32,000 nucleotides of DNA. It comes from an uncultured archaeon (lineage in GTDB: Archaea > Asgardarchaeota > Thorarchaeia > Thorarchaeales > Thorarchaeaceae). Below, piece by piece: positions 8,709-22,987 of the stretch. The notes under the pieces were generated by a model. It was not told the origin of the DNA and ran no database searches. It was given only the letters and a program-made list of their open reading frames with translations. Positions within the stretch are counted from its first letter, which is position 1; each line of letters starts with the position of its first letter. A program made the position numbers and the translations under genes. The stretch is from NCBI GenBank assembly GCA_964648855.1, contig CAZYLT010000005.1:120001-152000 (forward strand). Direction: 5' to 3'.

Positions 8709-11700
8709 GTGAAGTCAAAAGCAATACTGCTCCTGATTGTCTGTTCGTTATTGGTCCCAGCTTTCGGTAGAACAGAGTCCGCTGATTTCTCGCATGAGAA
8801 CTATAATACATATACCCCACAAATAGACTCCCTTCTGGTTTCTGATTTCCGAACAAGGGGCTTAACGGTTGCAGCTGCTGATGGGAATATGGTTTCAGCC
8901 ATACTGCAATTCAGAGAGGAATTGACAGCACAACAGATGCAGTGGGTGAAATCCCAAGGAATTGAATTCGTCACGAGAGATTCATCTATCGTTCATGTAG
9001 GTTCTATATATTCCGTCCGGGCTCCAAATTTGACTAGCATTCAAAGGCTCGATGAAATAGGTTTATTGCGAGCCAGTTCTGGGTCAAAGAAGTTTACGCC
9101 ATCTTTGACGTCATCTGTTCCTGCTATTGGCGCGCCGAATGTCTGGCATAACATGAAGAAGAATGATGAATCAATCAATGGAACTGGAACCAGAATCGCG
9201 GTTATAGATACAGGAGCATCCTGGCTTCACCCTACTTTCTGGCGATCAAATACTGACGAGCTAAATGTGCTGCAGTCGGGTTCAAGATATTATGTCGACA
9301 TTAATTCCAACTCTATCGCTGATGATGATGAAGGCCCCATCTCAACTGTTCAAGGTCAGGTGGGGCCTACAATTTCATATCAGCAAGACTACATGTTTAT
9401 CGATATCAATGATGATGGCGTATTTCAATATAATAATGGTGAACGGTGGCTAGGAGGAATAGATGCGAATGAGGACGGCGATATATCTTTCACTTCTGAA
9501 TCCGTTGTGATATTAGGCGAGTCCAAAATCGCAGTGCTATTCGACCAAGAGAATGATAATGTCTATGTTCGCGGCGTTAACTTGACACAAGCTACGCATG
9601 TCGGTGACTCCTATGGGCATGGTACGCACGTTGCATCCACAGCAGCTGGCGGTCAACCAGGAATGACTTCACTCGTTGGCGTGGCTCCTGGGGCTGATCT
9701 GATTATCATAAAAAGCCCCCTTGATTCTGCATCAATTATTGAGGGAATACACTTTGCCGTAGAGAATGAAGCTGATATAATTAACATGTCATTCTCTAGT
9801 TACCTTGGATTTCTAGACGGTACCGACTTGGAAGACCTTGCAGTATCTCAGGCATTCATAGCCAACGGCACACTTTCTACTCTTGCTGCAGGAAATCTGG
9901 GAGGAAGGGCAAAGCATGCTAATTTCCAGTGTTCTTCTGGAGAAACCGCAGGCACAACACTCTCTGTGAATAACCCCCCTGACAATTCTTTCATCAATAT
10001 ATTATGGCAAAGCGATGATGATGATGAGCACATAATCTTGACGCCACCCGGTGATGCTGAGCCGATTGACATAGGCGAATTTGGCTCGATAACGGGTTCC
10101 GCATATTCTCTGAATTCAGACAATATTAGCGCATATGTCTTTGCAGACACTAGCACTCGTGGTACTAATCGGTTGATAGTGCAAGTTTCATCTTCAAACC
10201 ATTTCTGGCATTCTGGTACTTGGTTGGTATCTATGTCAAATCCTTCCGGTGCTGCTGTGACCGTAGACGCATATGCATGGGACACTCAGTGGCACTATAC
10301 CAACCTAAGATTCACATCTAGAGTTGATGATCGTCGAACAATCAGTTCACCTGGCACCGCTGATTTGGGTGTTGCAGTTGGATCGTCCAGTAAAACTGGT
10401 GAAGGCATCAGCTCGACATCAAGTGAAGGACCCCGCATTGATGGTTCAATCAAGCCCGAGGTTGTTGCACCTGGGGATACAATCAATGCTGCAAGAAATA
10501 GCTTGTCAAACCTTTGGACTTCAAAAAGCGGCACAAGTATGGCTGCACCACATGTGGCCGGTGTTATTGCATTAATCAGACAGGCATCGGATTCTTTGAA
10601 TGGTTGGATTGACCTGTCATCTCTCTACCAAGGAGCCGGTGGCGCTGTAAACCACTATGCATCACCCTCGAATAGCTGGGGCTATGGGTTCGTTAATCCG
10701 ACCTATTCGATTCAACATTTCCTCAATACGAGTGTTTTAGAAACCAATTGGGAGTATATTGAAAATCTCGCTACTGATGGTGAGGATCCGTCAGTCAACG
10801 ATTCTCTGGATATCTTGTCGGTAAAGGCTTATCAAAACTCATCAGCAGTTCAGCTAAGAATTGGTTTCGACGGTGTAGCCGATTTTACTACTGACTCGGT
10901 CTTTACCTTGGAGTGGGATGTTGATTCATCATTGGCAACAGGCCCGCTGGGAGTTGATATGTTAGTAAATGTATCAGCCGGAGAAGTGCATGCCTATGAA
11001 TGGACTGGGTCCTCTTTCGAACTCGCTCCCTTCGCCCCTGAATTTTTCACAGAACTGGACTATCTGTACATCTCAGTTCTTCGAATACAACCATCACACA
11101 GGGGCAGGATGAGATTCAGTACATCAAATTCGACGGTTTCGACGCTGGACTCGTTGGACTACAGCAATCTGGAGAACCAGTGGCGACCCATATTCAGCTC
11201 GATATCTTACCAATCGGAAGGGACTGAATTTGATATTCGGATTTCGGTGTATGACCATGATACTCCGATAGGTGAAATGAATATTGAAGCCATCATTGTC
11301 GATGGCGGACTAGATGACCTAACATCCCAAAACAATCAGGCCGCTTCTGAACTCAATTGGAACGTGGATATTGGAGAACTGGAGAGCAATCCATTATTGA
11401 GTTTGATTGCTACGGCTGGTGATGAATCAGCAAGTTTGGCATCACCACCTGTGATGCTCTCGTCTGAACTCGGAACAGAGGTTCGTTTTGTCAGTGCTAG
11501 CCTTGAAACTACTCAAGTCCGTGTGGGCCCGTTTGTTTCCGACAGGATCAGTGGTTCCTTAACACTGGAGGGCCACTTGTTTGTAGATGCAGTCACATTA
11601 TCGTTTGTTCCCGAGTCTGGATTTACTCCCAATGTTACCTTGTCAGGAAATCAAGGGCAATATTCCTTTGATATTTCAACATCAGGTTTCTCAGAAGGCG

Positions 11701-11873
11701 AATATTCAGTAGTGGCAATAGCGACACTGAGAACTGGAGAACAAATCTCATATGAGTTTGCGACTCTGAGGGTCGTCAGTGACTACTCTGTCGTAATCCT
11801 TTTGGGGGTGGCCGCGATGGCTGTAGTCGCAATCATCATACTCTATCCCAAAATTGCTACGCGTATTAGATAG
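8709..11873 (+). CDS. Secreted, C-terminally membrane-anchored S8 subtilase with Csp-like internal insertion and DOMON/glucodextranase-C-like accessory domain
   Basis: Signal peptide MKSKAILLLIVCSLLVPAFG; triad IDTG / HGTHVA / GTSMAAPHVAG; oxyanion AAGN; C-terminal TM (VVILLGVAAMAVVAIIILY) plus basic tail. Confidence 0.92.
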   Translation: MKSKAILLLIVCSLLVPAFGRTESADFSHENYNTYTPQIDSLLVSDFRTRGLTVAAADGNMVSAILQFREELTAQQMQWVKSQGIEFVTRDSSIVHVGSIYSVRAPNLTSIQRLDEIGLLRASSGSKKFTPSLTSSVPAIGAPNVWHNMKKNDESINGTGTRIAVIDTGASWLHPTFWRSNTDELNVLQSGSRYYVDINSNSIADDDEGPISTVQGQVGPTISYQQDYMFIDINDDGVFQYNNGERWLGGIDANEDGDISFTSESVVILGESKIAVLFDQENDNVYVRGVNLTQATHVGDSYGHGTHVASTAAGGQPGMTSLVGVAPGADLIIIKSPLDSASIIEGIHFAVENEADIINMSFSSYLGFLDGTDLEDLAVSQAFIANGTLSTLAAGNLGGRAKHANFQCSSGETAGTTLSVNNPPDNSFINILWQSDDDDEHIILTPPGDAEPIDIGEFGSITGSAYSLNSDNISAYVFADTSTRGTNRLIVQVSSSNHFWHSGTWLVSMSNPSGAAVTVDAYAWDTQWHYTNLRFTSRVDDRRTISSPGTADLGVAVGSSSKTGEGISSTSSEGPRIDGSIKPEVVAPGDTINAARNSLSNLWTSKSGTSMAAPHVAGVIALIRQASDSLNGWIDLSSLYQGAGGAVNHYASPSNSWGYGFVNPTYSIQHFLNTSVLETNWEYIENLATDGEDPSVNDSLDILSVKAYQNSSAVQLRIGFDGVADFTTDSVFTLEWDVDSSLATGPLGVDMLVNVSAGEVHAYEWTGSSFELAPFAPEFFTELDYLYISVLRIQPSHRGRMRFSTSNSTVSTLDSLDYSNLENQWRPIFSSISYQSEGTEFDIRISVYDHDTPIGEMNIEAIIVDGGLDDLTSQNNQAASELNWNVDIGELESNPLLSLIATAGDESASLASPPVMLSSELGTEVRFVSASLETTQVRVGPFVSDRISGSLTLEGHLFVDAVTLSFVPESGFTPNVTLSGNQGQYSFDISTSGFSEGEYSVVAIATLRTGEQISYEFATLRVVSDYSVVILLGVAAMAVVAIIILYPKIATRIR

Positions 11874-11882
11874 GTGTAAGAA

Positions 11883-13166
11883 ATGAAAGTTGTAATTATT
11901 GGTTCTGGACCTAGTGGTCTTTCAGCGGCGTGGGCGGCTAAGTCATTTAGTCGGGATGCGGACGTCATAATCATTACGAAAGAAACTAGTGAAGCTCATA
12001 AGAAGCCAGGCTCAGCCATGGCTCTCGAATATCCTGAGACTGAAGCTCTCAACATCCCTGATTGGTCAAATGAGTCTTTACAAAAGATGGGTGTTGAGGT
12101 ACAATCGGGCACCAAGGTCATAGATGTAGATGTGTCATCAAAGACTCTAGAATTAGAAACAACCAAGTCTGAGTCCGATTCAATATCTTATGATAAACTC
12201 ATAATCGCTACTGGTGGGAGAGCATACGTTCCAGAGATTCCTGGTACTGATTTGGAGGGAGTATTTACTATTCAGGATGTGTCTGATAGCGCCAAAATTG
12301 GAAAGCGAATGAAAAACTATCGGAATATCATGGTGGTTGGAGCAGGATTAAGTGGGCTGGAAATAGCTGAGAAACTTCTCGAGCTAGATAAGGAGGTTCA
12401 TCTTATCGTTCGATCTCGTCTTATGAGGCGTCTCTTGGAAAAAAGAATGAGTGATGAACTGGAATCCCGTCTACCGCACTCACTTGAAGTCCACAAGGGC
12501 AAATCTCCTTCATCTGTCCTCGGAGATGAGAGAGTGAAGGGCCTAGCAATAAATGATGCTGAACTTGAAACCGATGCAGTCATCTTCATGACTGGAGTAA
12601 ATCCAAAGGTTGAGCTTGCACGGAAGCTGGGCCTAGAAATCGGCGGCTTGGGTGGGATTATTGTGGACTCAAAAATGCGAACATCTGAGGAGGACATTTT
12701 TGCAGTAGGCGATTGCATAGAGATGGCTGATTTCTATACAGGAAAACCTGTCATGATGCCAATCGGTAGCGTAGCAGCAAGATGTGGCCGTCAAGCTGGA
12801 GTCATAGCAGTTGGTGGGAAAAAAATCTACGAAGATACCGACCTGCGTTTCCAATATGATCGTATTTTCAATACCGATATCGTCTGCGTTGGTCTTTCAT
12901 CCGAAATTGCCTCAAGAGTGGGCGTTGATGTCGATGTTCACTTTGTCACCCATCCTGCAGAACAGATGAAGATAGCAATTGTCACTGCAAAGGATGGACC
13001 GGTTCTTGGTGGTCAAGTTATTTCCTCAAGACTAGGTGCTAAGATGGGGTATCAAATTCTTCAAAGGATGAAAGAGGGTGCTACACTAGAGGACAATCCG
13101 TTGCTGGACCCATTGCATGATAGAATTCTATCATCAATGCAACATAGATACGGGCCTATTGGATAG
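11883..13166 (+). CDS. FAD-dependent pyridine nucleotide-disulfide oxidoreductase family protein (NADH oxidase/CoA-disulfide reductase-like)
   Basis: FAD-binding GSGPSG, YDKLIIATG, NAD(P)-binding GAGLSGLE, IFAVGDC. AGGTG RBS 9 nt after the protease stop. Confidence 0.88.
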   Translation: MKVVIIGSGPSGLSAAWAAKSFSRDADVIIITKETSEAHKKPGSAMALEYPETEALNIPDWSNESLQKMGVEVQSGTKVIDVDVSSKTLELETTKSESDSISYDKLIIATGGRAYVPEIPGTDLEGVFTIQDVSDSAKIGKRMKNYRNIMVVGAGLSGLEIAEKLLELDKEVHLIVRSRLMRRLLEKRMSDELESRLPHSLEVHKGKSPSSVLGDERVKGLAINDAELETDAVIFMTGVNPKVELARKLGLEIGGLGGIIVDSKMRTSEEDIFAVGDCIEMADFYTGKPVMMPIGSVAARCGRQAGVIAVGGKKIYEDTDLRFQYDRIFNTDIVCVGLSSEIASRVGVDVDVHFVTHPAEQMKIAIVTAKDGPVLGGQVISSRLGAKMGYQILQRMKEGATLEDNPLLDPLHDRILSSMQHRYGPIG

Positions 13167-16095
13167 ATGGCCCCTCTTTTTCATCATCTCCCTCCCAACG
13201 AGGCTCCCATTCACCTTCTAATTTGTTTCGAGCCTTCTTTCCAATTCCAAACTTGAGAACGATTACAACAACAATCCCAACTGCAACTACTCCAAGTAGC
13301 GCTATGAATACCATCTGGGCTGTCACAGGATTTACTGTGTCTACTTGAACCAGTATTGTCTTGCTGAAAACGCGTGTGTTTCCATTACTATCTTCCATTC
13401 CTACTAGGATGTCATAGAACCCTGCAGTTTCAAGTATAAACTCTGTAGTGAATTTATATCCAAGCTCTTCCACTGGGTTTTCCGTTATATTCTGCCCGTT
13501 GGGCGTGGATATAGTCATCTCAACAGATTCAAGGTCCTCATCGAAGATGTATGCAGTGACTTCCGAGGTTTCACCCAACTTTACTTCAGTAAGCTTTACA
13601 TCGAATATGCGAGGGGCGTCAGTTAGTACTTGGTTTGCTATGTTTCTAAGTAGCACTAAGTTATCGCTTCCTGTTCGTATTGCATCATAGCTTATACTGT
13701 CATAAAGAATTGACCCATCCGAAACTGCAATGACTTTACCTCTTCCTGAGGTGGCATAGGCAACAATGGCGTGGGTCCGCCCTGAATCTGTCCAAAATAG
13801 CCCCTCTGCGCCTGCGATAGATGAATCAACACTGAATGTGCCACCGTTGAGAATATAGAGATTTTCTACTCCATCGGTTAGCGGGTGGTCTTCTGAAACA
13901 CCGCCATAGTCTTCTCCATAGACCTCTCCAACGAATATATCGCTGCCCTGTCCAATCCAATTATCCTCGCATTGAATCCCGTAGGGTGCCAGTATCTGAT
14001 TGTAAGAGGCTTGAGCAAAGGCTGGTCCACCGTTCTGAGTATCATATCCTTCGGAAAGAATCAACAATATTCCACCGGAGTCGACGTATTCGTGTATTGC
14101 ATTGATTTCAGCTGTAGAATACTGTAACTCAGTATCCATGACCATCAATACTTCTGCTGTTGCTAGTGCATTGCTGGTTATTGTGGGCATGGTAGAGGTT
14201 TCTGCCCAATTCTCTGGATACTCAGAAAAGACCATGCCGAGGTCACGGAGGTACTTTCGGAAGTATCGGTAGTAAGAAATATCGTCCGGGTCCTGGTCCG
14301 AGTGGTGCGCCATATCAACCATCACACTTCCCCCATAGGTCGTTATCGTCAGGTCTAACTCAAGGCTCGCAATTACTTCGTCATCGGTGTTCTGGAGACT
14401 TAACTGACCAACGTAGTGACCTATCGCGCTCAGCGGCAAATCTTCAGGCACAAGTAGATTGACTCCGAAATAAGAATGCCCAACTCCCACAGAAACAGAA
14501 TCATCATAGGTTACTATGAACTGGCTTGCATTTCCGGATGTAGCAATGTCTAGACTGCCGTGGTTTGTGGTAGATATCACTGTTACGTTTTGTCCAGGCC
14601 GCTCTTCACCGATTATGAAGACACTTGATGTCCCTGGCAGTGTTGGATATTCATTCGGGGTCACAATCGTGATTTGTCCTGAGGATGCTCCAATCATCTC
14701 AGAGGATTTTGTGACATTGGCAACACCATATCCCTCAGCCATGGGATCAGAGTTCAAGTCCGTTGAACCCGCCATTAGGAATGCTTTGATTTCCAAAGCA
14801 GTGATTCCCGGATGCTTGTCTATCAGCAATGCTGCTAATCCTGCTATTTGAGGACATGATGCTGACGTGCCTGACCAAATAGTATAGGCTGCAGGCCATT
14901 GAGTGGAATTATATCTAGGGTACTCTGCAGGGTTTGCCTGATCGGATAGAGCTGAGAGTATTTGATCACCAGGTGCAACAAGGTCTGGCTTGGCGTAGTA
15001 CCCGTGTGGTTCTGAGAAGGGACGATAGACGGGGCCTCGGCTGCTGAATGATATGATACCTGCATCGCCACTGGAGGAACCAACCGCTATTGCTTCATTA
15101 ACAACTGCAGGCGATGTGATGGTGATTGGTGCAGGACCAGAGTTACCTCCGGCGATTGTGACAACTACTCCCGCATCGATAGCCTCTCTTACCGCTAGTA
15201 TCGAAGGTTCAATGATGAATTGGTCGTCATTCCACGCTCCCCCAAGACTTAGTGAAATAATATCGGCATCTTGATCCACTGCGAACTCAATACCTTCTGC
15301 AATAACTGAGTCATCTCCACTACCAGTTGAGTCGAGGGCTTTCACTATTAATAACTCAGCGCCAGGAGCCATCCCTTTGTAATCGCCACCATTGCCTGCT
15401 CCTGTTCCAGCGACTAGCCATGCACATGCGGTCCCATGTCCATTATCATCATAGGCGTCAATGCCGTCAGAGGGATCCATGTCATGTTCTTCATCAATCA
15501 AATCATAGAAGCCGACTATCTTTCCTTCCAAGTCTGGATGGTCGCTCATTACACCACTATCTATAACTGCGACTTTTGCACCAGTACCATTGTATCCTTG
15601 TTCCCACAGGTCATCTGCACCAAGTATGCCATCAGGATGTGCATAGCCAGTGCCTGTTGATTGCCCTGGAGCAAAACCTACTTGTGGTTGGTTTATCGAC
15701 CTCACTGGATCAGCATCTAGTGCAATAACTCCCTCTAGTCGCGATAGCCTTTCTATAGCATCCGAATTTGCATAGAGAGAAACCACTGGAATTGTCTTGA
15801 ACATATTCCTTACTAATACCCCCGGATCTTTCAAATCTTCCAGAAGCTGAATTCTATCTGCATAATCAAATCCTTGTCCAAATTCAATAAGGACGGGCAT
15901 CATCTCGTTTGATTCAGATGCAGAAACCATCTTGCTCAGATGCATACCAATTTTGGGGGCTGTTGCTGACGCCACTGGAGGTTCAATGCTCTGAACAATG
16001 GGGAGTGGCATCATTAACAGCATAATGAGAATTACCGAAGAAAGTTGAAGTTGTTTGGTTCTATCGCTGCAGCCCATGTCAGTCAAGCCATCCAT
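13156..16095 (-). CDS. Type-I membrane S8 subtilase with GIFT/DUF4350-like domain (Site-1 protease/MBTPS1-like architecture)
   Basis: N-terminal hydrophobic signal, I9-like prodomain, triad IDSG / HGTAC / [11 protein letters not shown], AGGN. Followed by a beta domain, an alpha/beta domain (VMVDMAHH...[20 protein letters not shown]...[10 protein letters not shown]), an Ig-like domain, a TM helix and a charged tail. Start may be ATG 16077. Confidence 0.9.
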   Translation of the reverse strand: [979 protein letters not shown]

Positions 16096-16249: not shown

Positions 16250-16549
16250 ATGGCAAAAAGTAACCAGAGATATGAGCGCCGTCTGCAGGTCAAGCACTTC
16301 TACGAGGATCGACAGACTGGAAAGACTAAGAGAACCTGGCTAGAAGTCCAGTTGAGCCCACCTGAAAAGACAGATGAGGGCTGGGTTAATGACGGACGTG
16401 TTAGGCTATCCTTGGGCGAAGACCGTGATATCAAAGGCGCCTTTCTACTTTCCGTTGAAGAAGCATTGCGCTTGTACAAGGCGTTAGAGCTCATTGTAGA
16501 AGCTCACGAGAGTGAAAAAGCAGCATTATGGAAGGAATGGAACAAGTAG
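16250..16549 (+). CDS. Small hypothetical protein, possible PC4/Whirly/PUR-like nucleic-acid-binding fold
   Basis: 99 aa, GAGGT RBS; pattern of four beta strands followed by a long amphipathic helix (FLLSVEEALRLYKALE); rich in basic and aromatic residues. Confidence 0.75.
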   Translation: MAKSNQRYERRLQVKHFYEDRQTGKTKRTWLEVQLSPPEKTDEGWVNDGRVRLSLGEDRDIKGAFLLSVEEALRLYKALELIVEAHESEKAALWKEWNK

Positions 16550-16672
16550 CTTCCGTTCTTTTCAGCATAAAGCCGCTCTTTGAGCTTCAATTTCTTTCTA
16601 GGTATTCCTCGCCAGAACAGATATATCAAATGCTACAAAGAGATACTAGTATCTGTAAAAGGAGGATTTGAG

Positions 16673-17776
16673 TTGACCTCTCTGAGTCCAGCAATTGAAC
16701 CCGTAATTCTTATTGATGTCCCATTTCCGGCCATAGATCTATTGGCAGTCATGCCATATGTTATACCTCTCATTTTTGGAGCTACTGTTTTCGCCCTGTA
16801 TCAGCGGCATCTGATGCGTGGCAGTCTTGAGAGAAACATCATGCTGTCACTGAGTATTGCTGGATTTGTCATTGCCTTTCTATTGGTTCTTTATGCTGGA
16901 TTTGGCTCGGTGTGGTGGTGGAGAGATGACTTCACTCTTGGCTCATGGCGCTATCTCATAGGGTACCTCCAATTTGGAACTGACCTGGTATTTGGCTCTG
17001 TTATCACAGGTGTCATTTACTTGGTGATTGCCAGTGTTGTATTTGCGGTCATTGCGACCCGCGTAATTGCTCCCCCTGATCCTGATTTTGTTTCCCTACG
17101 AGAGGAGTTGGAAACCAAGAGTCGCTTGACCGAATCCCTCACTGAGAAGGTGCAGAATCTCGAAGCAGAGAATAAACAATTGAATGAGTTCTTGACCGAG
17201 CGGGAAGAGAATCTGATTTCTCTTGAGGAGGAACTTGATTCGCTTAAGGAGTCCATTGCTGGAAGAGAGGATGAACTTGTACATGCAAAAATGGAGCTCG
17301 AAAAAGCTGCCGAGTCAATAGAAACTAAACAATTAGAAGAAACAATTACAAAGAAGAACGAACAGATCCAATCCCTCGAAAATGAGATTAGTAATTTACG
17401 TTCTGCTCTTGAAAAGGAACCATCTGACGTAGTTGTGACTACTGAAGCGGAAGGCGAAACTAAGGCACTAAGAGATCAAGTTGAAACTCTGAAGAAACGA
17501 TTGGAAGACATGAGGCGACGGACTGAAACAGCTAACGAAGTGTCTGACAGCCTGATATCTGACTTGGCTGAGCTCATCTCTGACATCGAAAGTAGCTCAC
17601 TTGACAACCCTACTAAGAAATCGCTTGTCGCCTTGGTAGAGAATCTTGGTAGAGCAATGGGCAGAGTGTCAACTAGTTCACTCGATTCGAAGAATGAGCA
17701 ACCTCAGGTTGAACTGATAGGTGCGGTATTGATGATGCATGAAATTATCGATGGCATCAAGAAGATTGCTCGATAA
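16673..17776 (+). CDS. Membrane protein with N-terminal TM helices and long cytoplasmic coiled coil
   Basis: Track ORF 16580..17776; start refined to TTG 16673 after GGAGG (16661-16665). At least 3 hydrophobic segments, then heptad-rich E/K/L sequence (~150 aa) and a helical C-terminal domain. Confidence 0.82.
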   Translation: MTSLSPAIEPVILIDVPFPAIDLLAVMPYVIPLIFGATVFALYQRHLMRGSLERNIMLSLSIAGFVIAFLLVLYAGFGSVWWWRDDFTLGSWRYLIGYLQFGTDLVFGSVITGVIYLVIASVVFAVIATRVIAPPDPDFVSLREELETKSRLTESLTEKVQNLEAENKQLNEFLTEREENLISLEEELDSLKESIAGREDELVHAKMELEKAAESIETKQLEETITKKNEQIQSLENEISNLRSALEKEPSDVVVTTEAEGETKALRDQVETLKKRLEDMRRRTETANEVSDSLISDLAELISDIESSSLDNPTKKSLVALVENLGRAMGRVSTSSLDSKNEQPQVELIGAVLMMHEIIDGIKKIAR

Positions 17777-18217: not shown

Positions 18218-21200
18218 ATGAATAAAAAGAGGATTGCATTCGTTCTTGTCCTCGTTGCAGCCATGAGCTTAAGCTTGTTCTTTGCTCCAATGGCCCCCGT
18301 GCGGACAGTAGAACAGAACGCTCCTCCCGACTTCACACCTGAAGAGGTTGAAGAGATCAATAATTATTACGATATGGTCTCACAGCCGAATTTTGTACCT
18401 GAAGTACATCCGACTCTTGCAGCTTGGCAGGGCGGATCTGATATTTCAAACAAGGTGGTCATGAGGGACGGGAGTCCGAGTGTTCTAATCTACGGAACCC
18501 CATGGATGAACGTGGACAAAATCGATTCAATAGTCGAAATTGATTGGAAGGTAAACCTAAAGGCCTTCTGGATCATTAAGGCTGTGCTTCCTTCTGTAGA
18601 GTCTTTGGACTTCCTGCTTGATGTTGATGGTGTTTCAACCATCGCGGCCGACGAGAAAGCTTTCGCGACGGACGACCTGAATAAGGTACTCGATCAGGCT
18701 CCACCAAGTTTACCCCAAGTTGGTACTGATATGGCAAATATCAACGACCAAGTAAACGCTGACGGCACTAACGCAGCTGCCTATGATGGCACTGATGTAG
18801 TAGTTGGTCACGTTGACACTGGTGTAGACTTTGGACATCCGGCTCTTCAGAACTCATATAGCATAGACTCTTACGATCCGACAGGTTATGGTTTGGTTCC
18901 AACAAACTATCACGGAAATATGACCAATGTCGCCAACGTTACTGAGTGGCTAGCCGAAGGCAACCTGCTCACATATGAGAGCGGTGGGAAATACTACCTG
19001 AATGTCACCGGTTGGGATCCGGTCCTAAACAATATGGGTGGGCCAAGACACCTCATGGGTCTCTTGCCTCCATATGGGGATGGATATCCATACGGTCCAA
19101 CAGTAGGTTTCATCGGTCTTTATGAGTGGGCTTGGGGCGTCAATAACGCTTCAGAGTTTGTCTACAATGAACTCTGGAAGGACTGGGAAATACCAGCACC
19201 TGATGCTCTGAATTTTGTAGGTAACTACAGCTTTGGCTGGGCATTCCAGCAGAGATACAGTCCCTATGCGAAGGTCTTCGCACCAATGGTGGTACTGAAT
19301 GGTACCGGAAATACCCAGCACGTAGTTGTGGATTGGGAAGGTGGAGAGGGCTGGACAGCAATGTGGAATGGTGCTATCTACTATGAGGATATGGACCTGA
19401 ACACAACCGCAGATCGCGACGAAGTAGTAGGTCTATTCGACTGGAACTTCACCGACGACTTCACTGATGGGGACGGTCTCTTCAACTTGGCCAATCCAAT
19501 CATGACTGTCGATTACACTGGTGATGGCGTTGATGACTTCAGCCTTGGTGCTTTCGGAAATGTCTGGGATCCAGGCTTCTTCGATGATGAAACAGTCTTC
19601 GAGGCCTTCAGGTCTGATGGTGATGCTATCGCGATATACTTCGACCATGGTACACATGGTACTGCCACTGCAGCTCACGTAGTTGGTAGCGATGCGACAG
19701 AGCGTTACTATGATCCAGCTAACAACCAGACAATAGCATTAGAGGGCGTCGCTCCTGGTGCGAAATTAATATCAGTCGCTTCCATAACCGCGGGTGCTCG
19801 CTTGAACGGTCACCTCTGGGTCTGTGGTTTCGACTACAACGAAACAACGAAGGAGTTCTATTACTCCGGCAACCACGAGTCCGACCTTACGACCAACTCT
19901 TGGGGCTGGATAACAACACCCTTCAGTGAATTCGACTACTTGTCATTCACTTGGACAATACTATCCGTGCCAGACTACTTGGATGAAGATTACTCCGGTG
20001 TACTCCACGTCTGCTCAGCAGGCAACGAAGGCGCTGGCTTCATGACAATTGGTCCTCCTGGTGCAAGTGCTGCAACTCTTACCGTTGGCGCTTCAACTCA
20101 GAGCCAATGGCTAGAATACCTCTACGGTCCAACTCAACCATATGAGGGTCCAGCAAGCTTCACCAGCAAGGGTCCGGCATTCTCAGGTTACGTCAAACCT
20201 GACGTCATGGCTCCCGGCTCAGCAGGTTATTCTGCTAATCCATGGTATGGACAATACTTCCAGTCTTACTGGATGGATGGCCCGTACTGGGGCGCAATGG
20301 TCTACAATACTACCCTATTTGGTGGTACTAGCCAAGCCGCACCCGTTACAGCCGGTGTGGTTGCATTAGTACTTGAGGCAGTCATAGATCAGACAATTGT
20401 CATTCCTGATGACTATCTGGCGCCTTCATTGAAGGTAACGATACAGGGGACTGCTGATGACCTAGGTTTAGATCCAGCAACACAAGGATTCGGAAGAGTC
20501 AATGCTGACGCTGCTGTAGATCTAGTCGTGAACAACCAAGGCCTGGTTGGCTGGAACTTGGACTCATTCAACAACTTGGCAACAATGCTTGATAAGCCGT
20601 GGGCCAACTGGGGCTCGTTGAATCTTGGCAAGGCGGTTGACAATGAGAACTTCACCCATCCGAGAGACTTTGGTGACAGCTCGTTGTACTTTGGCATGAT
20701 GATGCCCGGAGACACAGCCACGATCAGTCACGCATTCTTTAACGATTGGGGCGCATCGACTCCTCTAGACGCTTCAAGTTGGTCAGAACAGGCCATGATG
20801 ATGCAGATGGCGGAGATGTACACCTTCACGGGTACTACATTCTCGTACAATGACACAGTTGTTTACGACAGTCAGATGTACGGCTGGTTCAACCTTCGTG
20901 ATGAGATTGGTACCAGCGCCTACGATACAGATACTGGTGCCTACAACTATGTGACTCTCGGTGTATCATTCGATGCTGCTGAGGTCGCAGGTGCAGAACC
21001 ATGGATGTTCCTATATGATTGGGATGATGCCAACAACACCGATGGTATGCCTAACTTATGGAATGAAACTGCCCAACTTGGTGATGAACTCCATCGCTTG
21101 ACCAATGCCGGTGACCCGAGCAACACCAACATGATGTCTTGGGCTACAACTGACATTGCCAGCATCGATGGTGCTCTGGACGGGAATCTGACTCTAGTGA

Positions 21201-22987
21201 TTCATGATCCGGTTCATGATACTAACATGACCGCTCCTGGTCACGAGTTCACCTGTACAGTCATCTTCTGGGAGGAAGTTGCAGTACCTAGTGGCTTCTC
21301 ATTCGAGAAAGCGATTAGTTCTAGTGAAAGCTACAACATCACTCTCAACACAACTGGTTGGGAAACTGGTATCCATCAAGGCTATGTAGAAATCACTGCT
21401 GGTTCAGATGTTTACAAGGTTCCATGGAGCGTTAACATTGTAGCTAACCTTACAGGCACAGAGACTGAGGTACACACCATCGTTGATGGTTGGGGCGCTG
21501 AGCTCGAACCATACGACAGTGCAATGTACGGTTGCATGGGTGAGGACCCAGATGACTGGGACTTCCGAAGCTTTGCCATCTACAACCAGCATGCGACAGC
21601 GGGTTATCTCGGTGTACGTGCGATTTGGGATGACACTGGCAACGATATGATGGTCGAGGTCCTAGATGCTAACACAACTGTCCTTGGTAGCAACGCCGGT
21701 GAAACGGCAACGACAACAGCTGTTATTGCTGAACTCAGCGCACCTGTTGGATATCACTACATAATGGTGCATCCGACTGCGTTGAACGGTACAACGAGCC
21801 TACCAGTGAACTTCACTCTAGAGGTCATGTGGTACGAGGAGCTCACAGATGAACCTGTGATCTTTACTTACACCACAGATGACAGAGATGGCACATTTAC
21901 TCTTGGAGAAGGCGACACCGCTTGGGGTGACCACGTGGTTGTCAACGCAACCTATCCAGAGTTTGACTTGCCGAATCTGCCAGAATACGAAGTCACATCA
22001 ATTGAGGTTGGCTTCCTGTCCGGTGTCTACTACGAGGAATCTGGTCCCCTTGTCATACCTGACTCTGGCTATGACCCATTCTCTGGAGCTATTGACACCT
22101 CTCAATTCGCTTGGGAGTACGTCTCTGGCATCAAGGATGCCGACGACGTCTACGTAGAGGTCGACTTTACGAACGGCGATTGTGATGTCATGGCATGGTG
22201 GTACAGCATTGATGGCGAGATACAGGACAACTCAACCTGGTCATACGGTAACAACCTACTAGGCGCCCAGACTGCCACAGGCGCTCATCCAGAGATTGGC
22301 GAATTCACAGCCGACTTCGATGGTGATGTAGCAACGCTGGCTGTTGGTGTCTTTGACTACGACTTGCAGTCTGGTCAATACACAGTGATTGTTGACACCC
22401 GTGTTGGTGTCTTCGAGTCTGCTGTTGGCAGCACTGTGACCTATGATACCTATGACCTCGGTCGCAATGGTACATTCCAGGTCAAGATTAGCGCTTGGAC
22501 TGACACCAATGAGATGTTCGTCATCAACTACGCTGCCATTACATTCCAGAACTACTTCTCACCTGTTCTCTCGAACATTGAGGTAACTGGAACTGGTGCA
22601 GTCAAGACAATCACGTGGGATGCTAGTGACCTGAACGCTCAGGACACCCATGTATTCGAGATTCTCATCTCTGATGATGGCGGAGAGAACTTCCAGCTAT
22701 TAGCTACAGGTCTCACTGCACTTGAGTACGAATGGGATTCCACTGGCTTTGAGATCAACAATTACACAGCCCTAGTGCGTGTGACTGACTCATACGGACT
22801 CACAGACTCAATCGAGTCGGACGAGTTTGAGGCAGGTACTGTTGAACCTCCAGAGCCCACTGAACCGACCGATACGGAAACTGATACAGGCTTCTTCGGC
22901 CTCGACCCATTGGTTCTAGGCCTTATTGCCGGTATTGGCGTTGGTGTTGTCGTAGTGCTCATTCTCTTCCTCGTGAAGAGACGGTAG
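18218..22987 (+). CDS. Giant (1589 aa) cell-surface S8 subtilase, pyrolysin-like, membrane anchored
   Basis: Signal peptide MNKKRIAFVLVLVAAMSLSLFFA; triad VDTG / HGTATAAH / GTSQAAPVTAG; SAGNEG; ~270 aa insert between the catalytic Asp and His; beta-rich C-terminal domains, Pro/Thr/Glu linker, TM helix and KRR. GTGAGGA RBS. Confidence 0.93.
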   Translation: MNKKRIAFVLVLVAAMSLSLFFAPMAPVRTVEQNAPPDFTPEEVEEINNYYDMVSQPNFVPEVHPTLAAWQGGSDISNKVVMRDGSPSVLIYGTPWMNVDKIDSIVEIDWKVNLKAFWIIKAVLPSVESLDFLLDVDGVSTIAADEKAFATDDLNKVLDQAPPSLPQVGTDMANINDQVNADGTNAAAYDGTDVVVGHVDTGVDFGHPALQNSYSIDSYDPTGYGLVPTNYHGNMTNVANVTEWLAEGNLLTYESGGKYYLNVTGWDPVLNNMGGPRHLMGLLPPYGDGYPYGPTVGFIGLYEWAWGVNNASEFVYNELWKDWEIPAPDALNFVGNYSFGWAFQQRYSPYAKVFAPMVVLNGTGNTQHVVVDWEGGEGWTAMWNGAIYYEDMDLNTTADRDEVVGLFDWNFTDDFTDGDGLFNLANPIMTVDYTGDGVDDFSLGAFGNVWDPGFFDDETVFEAFRSDGDAIAIYFDHGTHGTATAAHVVGSDATERYYDPANNQTIALEGVAPGAKLISVASITAGARLNGHLWVCGFDYNETTKEFYYSGNHESDLTTNSWGWITTPFSEFDYLSFTWTILSVPDYLDEDYSGVLHVCSAGNEGAGFMTIGPPGASAATLTVGASTQSQWLEYLYGPTQPYEGPASFTSKGPAFSGYVKPDVMAPGSAGYSANPWYGQYFQSYWMDGPYWGAMVYNTTLFGGTSQAAPVTAGVVALVLEAVIDQTIVIPDDYLAPSLKVTIQGTADDLGLDPATQGFGRVNADAAVDLVVNNQGLVGWNLDSFNNLATMLDKPWANWGSLNLGKAVDNENFTHPRDFGDSSLYFGMMMPGDTATISHAFFNDWGASTPLDASSWSEQAMMMQMAEMYTFTGTTFSYNDTVVYDSQMYGWFNLRDEIGTSAYDTDTGAYNYVTLGVSFDAAEVAGAEPWMFLYDWDDANNTDGMPNLWNETAQLGDELHRLTNAGDPSNTNMMSWATTDIASIDGALDGNLTLVIHDPVHDTNMTAPGHEFTCTVIFWEEVAVPSGFSFEKAISSSESYNITLNTTGWETGIHQGYVEITAGSDVYKVPWSVNIVANLTGTETEVHTIVDGWGAELEPYDSAMYGCMGEDPDDWDFRSFAIYNQHATAGYLGVRAIWDDTGNDMMVEVLDANTTVLGSNAGETATTTAVIAELSAPVGYHYIMVHPTALNGTTSLPVNFTLEVMWYEELTDEPVIFTYTTDDRDGTFTLGEGDTAWGDHVVVNATYPEFDLPNLPEYEVTSIEVGFLSGVYYEESGPLVIPDSGYDPFSGAIDTSQFAWEYVSGIKDADDVYVEVDFTNGDCDVMAWWYSIDGEIQDNSTWSYGNNLLGAQTATGAHPEIGEFTADFDGDVATLAVGVFDYDLQSGQYTVIVDTRVGVFESAVGSTVTYDTYDLGRNGTFQVKISAWTDTNEMFVINYAAITFQNYFSPVLSNIEVTGTGAVKTITWDASDLNAQDTHVFEILISDDGGENFQLLATGLTALEYEWDSTGFEINNYTALVRVTDSYGLTDSIESDEFEAGTVEPPEPTEPTDTETDTGFFGLDPLVLGLIAGIGVGVVVVLILFLVKRR

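Follow-up and report, generated by a model that had tools for sequence, protein, structure and literature searches.

Domain architecture of a membrane-anchored Asgard subtilase hints at an archaeal root of the eukaryotic site-1 protease

Multi-domain subtilases and the protein encoded at 13156-16095

Site-1 protease (S1P, also called SKI-1 or MBTPS1; MEROPS S08.063) makes the first cut in the activation of membrane-bound factors such as SREBP and ATF6. Here we describe a gene for a subtilase with a similar body plan in an uncultured Thorarchaeaceae archaeon (GenBank assembly GCA_964648855.1, contig CAZYLT010000005.1, positions 120,001 to 152,000 of the forward strand; this stretch of 32,000 nucleotides is referred to as the window). 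The gene lies on the reverse strand at positions 13156-16095 of the window, where an open reading frame (ORF) translates into a protein of 979 amino acids (aa). The product is probably an active, type-I membrane-anchored zymogen of the subtilisin family with an S1P-like body plan, belonging to a family that occurs throughout Asgard archaea. A preliminary description, made from the sequence alone, had proposed the protein as an archaeal counterpart of S1P. The ORF and the eight archaeal motifs quoted there are all present in the translation. The S1P motifs quoted there were right to within about one residue (GYGRV, not GYGRM, is found in most species), as judged by an alignment of PDB 8uwc, a BLASTP alignment of the Latimeria S1P and a consensus of 16 metazoan species.

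For comparison with S1P we used its solved structures (PDB: 8UW8, 8UWC, 9CSD). The published structure (PMC11231238) is composed of the S8 domain, a beta-sandwich termed 'P-like' at 479-616, whose unusual topology includes a discontinuous N-terminal strand that belongs to both sheets, and a GIFT subdomain at 617-998. The Pfam map of the Latimeria S1P (P0387) agrees with this layout. The domain order of S1P, with pro-domains, S8, P-like and GIFT domains, a transmembrane (TM) helix and a short cytoplasmic tail, is also that of the modelled 979-aa protein, and both begin with a signal and have one TM helix. However, the two are only 18-27% identical in sequence. The archaeal protein has one propeptide, whereas S1P has an A and a B pro-domain, and it carries an additional Ig-like stalk. 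S1P, unlike the archaeal protein, has the partner SPRING, a Golgi context and known substrates.

By sequence and in structural alignment, the best solved relative of the archaeal protein is Tk-SP of Thermococcus kodakarensis (PDB: 3AFG, 9UES; Z 46-47, 415 residues at 2.8 A), which shares the propeptide, the catalytic domain and the next beta-sandwich. In contrast, Tk-SP is soluble and secreted and is devoid of the GIFT domain, the Ig-like stalk, the TM helix and the cytoplasmic tail. The fold of residues 589-825 is found in the GIFT domains of IFT52 and OST48/DDOST (PDB: 5FMS, 6S7O) and of prokaryotic DUF4350 and ABC_transp_aux proteins; these, however, are not fused to a protease. A search of the literature revealed no work that connects S1P, MBTPS1 or GIFT domains to Asgard archaea, and none on the evolutionary origin of S1P.

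An AlphaFold2 (AF2) model of the 979-aa protein, built on 46 homologues (predicted local distance difference test score, pLDDT, 83.5), and Pfam matches confirmed the domain order of the preliminary description: signal, propeptide, S8, beta-sandwich, GIFT/GATase-like (there DUF4350-like) domain, Ig-like domain, TM helix and a tail of 30 aa. The GIFT domain, which had been placed at about 14325-13630, spans 13621-14331 in the model. The features of the protein are as follows.

15988..16095, reverse strand: putative N-terminal export signal, residues 1-36, with a hydrophobic core at about 19-34 (translation; AF2 helix 12-28, then a low-confidence linker)
15691..15960, reverse strand: propeptide of the I9 / Tk-SP N-pro type, residues about 46-135 (AF2 alpha/beta module at about 50-133)
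14686..15648, reverse strand: Peptidase S8 catalytic domain, residues 150-470, with D179, H220, oxyanion N318 and S411 (Pfam PF00082 and AF2)
14341..14670, reverse strand: 'P-like' beta-sandwich packed after the catalytic domain, residues 476-585 (AF2 strands 476-584)
13621..14331, reverse strand: GIFT / GATase1-like alpha/beta domain, residues 589-825 (AF2, Pfam matches near the cut-off, structure, hhalign)
13348..13611, reverse strand: Ig-like stalk, residues 829-916 (seven AF2 strands, pLDDT about 87-90)
13249..13329, reverse strand: single TM helix, residues 923-949 (hydrophobic stretch, AF2 helix, conserved in the family alignment)
13159..13248, reverse strand: cytoplasmic tail, residues 950-979, with an acidic EWE motif and a PPSIE-type C-terminal end (family alignment)

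The order of the catalytic triad, the oxyanion asparagine and the Pfam score assign the protein to peptidase family S8 (S8A type). PF00082 matched residues 170-457 with 172.2 bits (cut-off 21.8; E 2e-50). The Asp-His-Ser order and the oxyanion Asn are kept, and D179, H220, N318 and S411 are unchanged across 46 family members; given these invariant residues, the enzyme looks catalytically active, judging from its sequence. The propeptide superposes on that of ProN-Tk-SP (3afg_B; model range 46-577, Z 46.2), and relatives in the family match the Pfam entries Tk-SP_N-pro and Inhibitor_I9. It is followed in the AF2 model by a disordered linker (residues 137-149) that leads to the catalytic domain. 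The beta-sandwich is covered by the structural alignments to S1P 478-616 and to the beta-jelly-roll of Tk-SP. Superposition of residues 589-825 on the GIFT domain of IFT52 (Z 21.5, 204 residues at 2.7 A) places this region in the GIFT superfamily. Its Pfam matches to the GIFT clan (ABC_transp_aux, DUF4350 and IFT52_GIFT, at residues 629-797) all lie just below the cut-off; the isolated region scored 34.2, 28.1 and 26.8 bits, slightly short of the three cut-offs. An hhalign comparison with generic prokaryotic GIFT domains gave an E of 6e-41. For the Ig-like region, one relative showed a weak Filamin match.

Likeness to S1P and distribution in Asgard archaea

A Foldseek search of the PDB with the whole model returned S1P as the first match (9csd_A; E 1.5e-39, 770 columns) and then 8uw8_A, both above Tk-SP. 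Superposition on S1P, as called for in the preliminary description, aligned 591 residues (VIA-align; model 151-825 with 190-872 of chain 8uw8_A, Z 40.3). The solved S1P structures are the only entries that span the S8 domain, the beta-sandwich and the GIFT domain; all others stop by model residue 586. The post-catalytic part was also folded alone (pLDDT 85.7), and Foldseek again ranked S1P first (9csd_A; E 1.6e-12, 402 columns). An exhaustive VIA search with this part placed IFT52 (Z 21.5) and OST48 (18.8) slightly above S1P (17.7), which was the sole match across both post-catalytic domains, with 314 residues aligned. In the ESM Atlas, eukaryotic S1P clusters took ranks 2-10 for the whole protein (score 0.94), after its own Thor cluster. 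For the post-catalytic part a plant MBTPS1_3rd/4th cluster came first (score 0.86), which is a lead only; the shape search of the Atlas with the post-catalytic model gave generic GIFT clusters only.

The likeness can also be traced in sequence. BLASTP against the Latimeria S1P showed 27% identity over 331 aa of the S8 domain (E 4e-23) and a second colinear segment inside the GIFT domain (E 3e-4). Comparison of the Thor post-catalytic profile with a profile of 14 metazoan S1P species in hhalign gave a probability of 92% (E 7.2e-7), so the earlier claim that the similarity to S1P is colinear and extends beyond the catalytic core held. The match to metazoan S1P was stronger for an Asgard-wide post-catalytic profile (probability 98.8%, E 1.4e-16) and for an Odin-like subgroup (E 1.7e-17), whose alignment begins within the P-like domain, with low per-column confidence there. 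Among PDB sequences, phmmer with the post-catalytic region found IFT52 alone, weakly (E 0.028), and not S1P, and the Thor profile reached S1P over a motif of 48 residues only (E 5e-3). A search with a local hidden Markov model (HMM) of the S1P P-like domain revealed nothing significant. An N-x-T sequon aligned to N515 of S1P is present in 39 of 46 Thor proteins and occurs sporadically elsewhere in Asgard archaea.

A word-indexed search with the post-catalytic part revealed 111 clusters, nearly all named Thorarchaeota. A genome scan detected a single-copy orthologue in 62 Thorarchaeota species-level genomes; it used Thor-specific peptide patterns, by which only Thor-type loci can be retrieved, and is silent on other phyla. 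When 1.8 billion representatives were searched with a profile, 1068 matches were obtained; in about 45 of the top 150, an S8 domain precedes the beta-sandwich and the GIFT domain. Taxon names were attached to some clusters only. The named carriers of this build are Thor, Hermod, Asgardarchaeia, Odin, Hel, Ran, Loki, Baldr, Heimdall and Hod, with Promethearchaeota, Heimdallarchaeaceae and Hodarchaeales as further names; apart from one Bathyarchaeia cluster, all named sources are Asgard. The S8 / beta-sandwich / GIFT build is therefore pan-Asgard, Heimdall and Hod included.

Common ancestry or convergent assembly

The three-domain build may share its ancestry with that of S1P, and the data equally allow independent assembly. 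The case for whole-protein ancestry with S1P comes from the architecture and topology that the two have in common; the trees do not resolve it. A convergent origin is a substantial possibility, although short of probable: a surface subtilase of the Tk-SP or pyrolysin type would have been joined to a common prokaryotic GIFT domain and an anchor, and S1P would have been assembled independently or from a bacterial S8 protein. We consider it doubtful that the pan-Asgard family is the direct archaeal forerunner of S1P, a site-specific processing subtilase of the surface or endomembranes (basic P4, aliphatic P2) in the archaeal ancestor of eukaryotes.

Several results weigh against a specific tie between the family and S1P. 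The best solved sequence relative of the catalytic domain is the secreted archaeal Tk-SP (E 2.4e-47) and not S1P, and a beta-sandwich following the S8 domain is common among subtilases, for example in Tk-SP. The Pfam family MBTPS1_4th (PF23090, cut-off 27 bits) found no match in the window protein at E <= 1 and matched 44 of 46 relatives weakly, below the generic GIFT families (best E 1e-6; P0045 24.9 bits). MBTPS1_3rd (PF23094) and MBTP1_N (PF23001) were detected at E <= 0.1 in none of the 46 post-catalytic regions, nor in full-length scans. In a careful S8 tree (LG+C20+F+G4, ultrafast bootstrap) S1P is a long branch with 2.0 changes per site. Approximately unbiased (AU) tests, run on 49 rows and 296 columns under LG+F+G4, a site-homogeneous model that is less robust to long branches, rejected a sister relationship between S1P and the Thor clade (p 0.0002). 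An S8 domain has also been combined with GIFT domains elsewhere: P0180 (L071:3001-9285) is a metagenomic protein of 2094 aa with S8, CARDB, two GIFT domains and cohesin, and in the S8 tree its catalytic domain is distant from the Asgard S8-GIFT clade, which therefore makes it an independent fusion. A weak S8-GIFT paralogue on contig 15 of the source genome, which falls elsewhere in the S8 tree, is a weak case of the same kind. With S8 and GIFT combined independently at least twice, convergence gains in plausibility.

The gene for P0180 adjoins an exosortase-like gene. In the contig 15 paralogue (G000:C15:50640-52649, forward strand) the weak GIFT match covers residues 502-645 (E 0.003). Another S8 paralogue of the source genome, of 1457 aa (G000:C1:298801-303171, forward strand), groups at 99-100% support with Asgard proteins in which an insertion of about 440 aa separates the S8 domain from the beta-GIFT module.

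The catalytic domain on its own gave mixed signals. Tk-SP and subtilisins are its best sequence relatives, as convergence would have it. The S1P catalytic domain shares 33-36% identity with S8 proteins of Streptomyces, Pseudoalteromonas and cyanobacteria that lack a GIFT domain, compared with 27% for the 979-aa protein. Scores against the S1P S8 domain (111 bits for the best Asgard S8-GIFT protein, 97 for Bacillus subtilisins and 67 for the 979-aa protein) do not single out Asgard archaea. The 979-aa protease is the best of the 10 S8 paralogues of its genome in this comparison (67 vs 50 bits). The Streptomyces plasmid S8 peptidases (L063:2380-5679, L072:2838-6215 and L073:2859-6620) are 1100-1250 aa long and 34-36% identical to the S1P catalytic domain; no GIFT match was found in their long unannotated C-terminal regions.

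In a quick S8 tree of 72 rows, S1P fell inside an Asgard-dominated group (Shimodaira-Hasegawa-like approximate likelihood ratio test, SH-aLRT, 87), and it moved outside this group when six bacterial sequences were added. In the careful tree S1P arises from a polytomy from which every Asgard S8-GIFT lineage also branches, together with the Streptomyces group and some paralogues. In the AU tests, a grouping of S1P with the Asgard S8-GIFT proteins as a whole (p 0.43) or with the Heimdall proteins (p 0.42) was not rejected, which speaks against convergence; nor was one with the Streptomyces group (p 0.23) or the short subtilisins (p 0.31), as convergence would predict. The S8 phylogeny proposed in the preliminary description does not join the 979-aa protein to S1P, and within the family the branch nearest to S1P is not that of Thorarchaeota. 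The tree sample comprised S1P from metazoans only (no plant or protist), few outgroups, of which the bacterial ones came from plasmids, and no other eukaryotic S8 families.

The FSSRG...KPD insert had been read as the same in both proteins and as a link to S1P. It is 27-28 residues long in the Thor clade and 27 in both S1P and one Deinococcus protein, whereas all other Asgard lineages have 21-22. It was rejected as a shared derived character on its distribution and on the AU rejection of S1P with Thor; because of this confined distribution and the AU result, the insert is probably convergent.

The GIFT domain likewise gave evidence on both sides. With the S1P GIFT profile in hhalign, generic GIFT domains that are not linked to S8 scored at least as well (E 6.5e-20) as the Asgard S8-linked ones (E 1.4e-16), and the Asgard S8-linked domains are far closer to generic GIFT domains (E 7e-45) than to S1P. 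Non-S8 GIFT proteins rank among the best matches of an HMM search with the S1P GIFT domain. Two prokaryotic GIFT proteins without a protease, P0199 (L078:4001-7102) and P0242, exceed the MBTPS1_4th cut-off (30.2 and 37.9 bits) and group with the S1P GIFT domain in a quick tree. These results favour convergence. On the other hand, the quick GIFT tree placed S1P among the non-Thor Asgard S8-linked domains, together with three unplaced proteins, with weak support (SH-aLRT 80-92).

Convergence would also have to account for the agreement of four modules in order and in membrane topology, and for the fact that structural and language-model searches rank S1P above every other multi-domain S8 protein. 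Moreover, among the named prokaryotic matches the build is almost confined to Asgard archaea, which of all archaea are most closely related to eukaryotes. Of the proposal of a proto-S1P, the S1P body plan, the top structural match and the pan-Asgard distribution stand, but specific descent found no backing in the S8 tree, the AU tests or the comparison with generic GIFT domains. With these results, part of what the preliminary description had named as speaking against its own proposal was observed.

Possible role and gene neighbourhood

If the 979-aa protein is an active zymogen with an S1P-like body plan, it would be exported through the Sec pathway, consistent with the role inferred for residues 1-36. 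The propeptide would fold, inhibit the enzyme and leave autocatalytically near residues 133-150. The mature protease would then remain anchored at the outside of the membrane and cleave surface or secreted proteins. By analogy with P-domains, the beta-sandwich may steady the catalytic domain, and the GIFT domain might serve as a platform that binds partners or glycans. To our knowledge, the function of a GIFT domain has been established in none of IFT52, OST48 or the prokaryotic GIFT proteins.

Two short stretches of the protein stand out in the family alignment. In the cytoplasmic tail, P975, P976 and I978 are conserved in at least 90% of the family alignment; nearly every member of the Thor family has PPSIE or PPSIQ at the end of its tail, and EWE is conserved. 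At the end of the propeptide (residues 127-136; 15688-15717, reverse strand) there is a semi-conserved (K/R)-R-x-(I/L/V/A), here V-R-S-I-N. The tail could be a docking or sorting signal, and the motif at the propeptide end resembles the R-x-(L/V/I)-x recognition motif of S1P; both are leads only. As sequence motifs, the EWE...PPSIE tail and the propeptide end would suggest a dedicated and not a scavenging role.

In Thorarchaeota, the genes around the protease gene recur in 33-56 of the 62 loci. They are the following.

8709-11873, forward strand: membrane-tethered S8 gene with large insertions in the catalytic domain, a conserved neighbour
11883-13166: pyridine-nucleotide oxidoreductase, a conserved neighbour between this S8 gene and the gene of the 979-aa protease
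16250..16549, forward strand: basic protein of 99 aa, divergent from the protease gene, no Pfam family
16580-17776, forward strand: protein of 398 aa, with membrane helices at its N-terminus and a long coiled coil in the cytoplasm, encoded next to the 99-aa protein at 42 of the 62 loci
18218-22987, forward strand: giant membrane-tethered S8 gene with large insertions in the catalytic domain, a conserved neighbour

The gene of the 99-aa protein adjoins the protease gene in 49 of the 62 Thorarchaeota loci, and its product, with 67-96% identity (tblastn), is therefore more conserved than the protease. The three subtilase genes (8709-11873, 13156-16095 and 18218-22987) form a conserved block in Thorarchaeota, and TldD/PmbA peptidases are located upstream. 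This cluster with two further tethered subtilases fits surface proteolysis in general.

The same neighbourhood could be read as that of a bulk nutritional protease, which along with other subtilases tethered at the surface would break down environmental protein for the uptake of peptides, with no site-specific processing. The conserved block with its two flanking membrane-tethered S8 genes would be expected on this account, as would the upstream TldD/PmbA peptidases and the 10 S8 genes of the genome. We hold such a role to be rather unlikely, since a single orthologue, a conserved tail motif and an ectodomain conserved across all Asgard classes fit a dedicated role better.

That the enzyme is a true site-1 protease of an archaeal two-step pathway of regulated intramembrane proteolysis, clipping a tethered regulator before its release by an M50 (S2P) protease as the preliminary description had suggested, is very improbable: the genome has three M50 loci, and the S1P-like build and the propeptide-end motif would be in keeping with it, but M50 occurs in each of the 14 control genomes as well, the protease gene has no M50 locus in its vicinity, no membrane-tethered transcription factor was found among the conserved neighbours, and bacterial site-1 cleavage is carried out by proteases unrelated to S1P. 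The presence of M50, being universal, is uninformative as support for an S1P/S2P cascade.

An Asgard family that unites the S1P-type three-domain ectodomain with a membrane anchor makes the origin of S1P testable. If descent were refuted, the family would be a clear case of the convergent assembly of a complex protease, and if convergence is true, its likeness to S1P is uninformative on the origin of eukaryotes. If descent is true, a processing protease of the secretory pathway would join the parts of eukaryotic cell biology that are traced to Asgard archaea. Were the family the direct forerunner of S1P, it would represent an unlisted eukaryotic signature protein. At present, the S1P-like architecture hints at an archaeal root of the site-1 protease.

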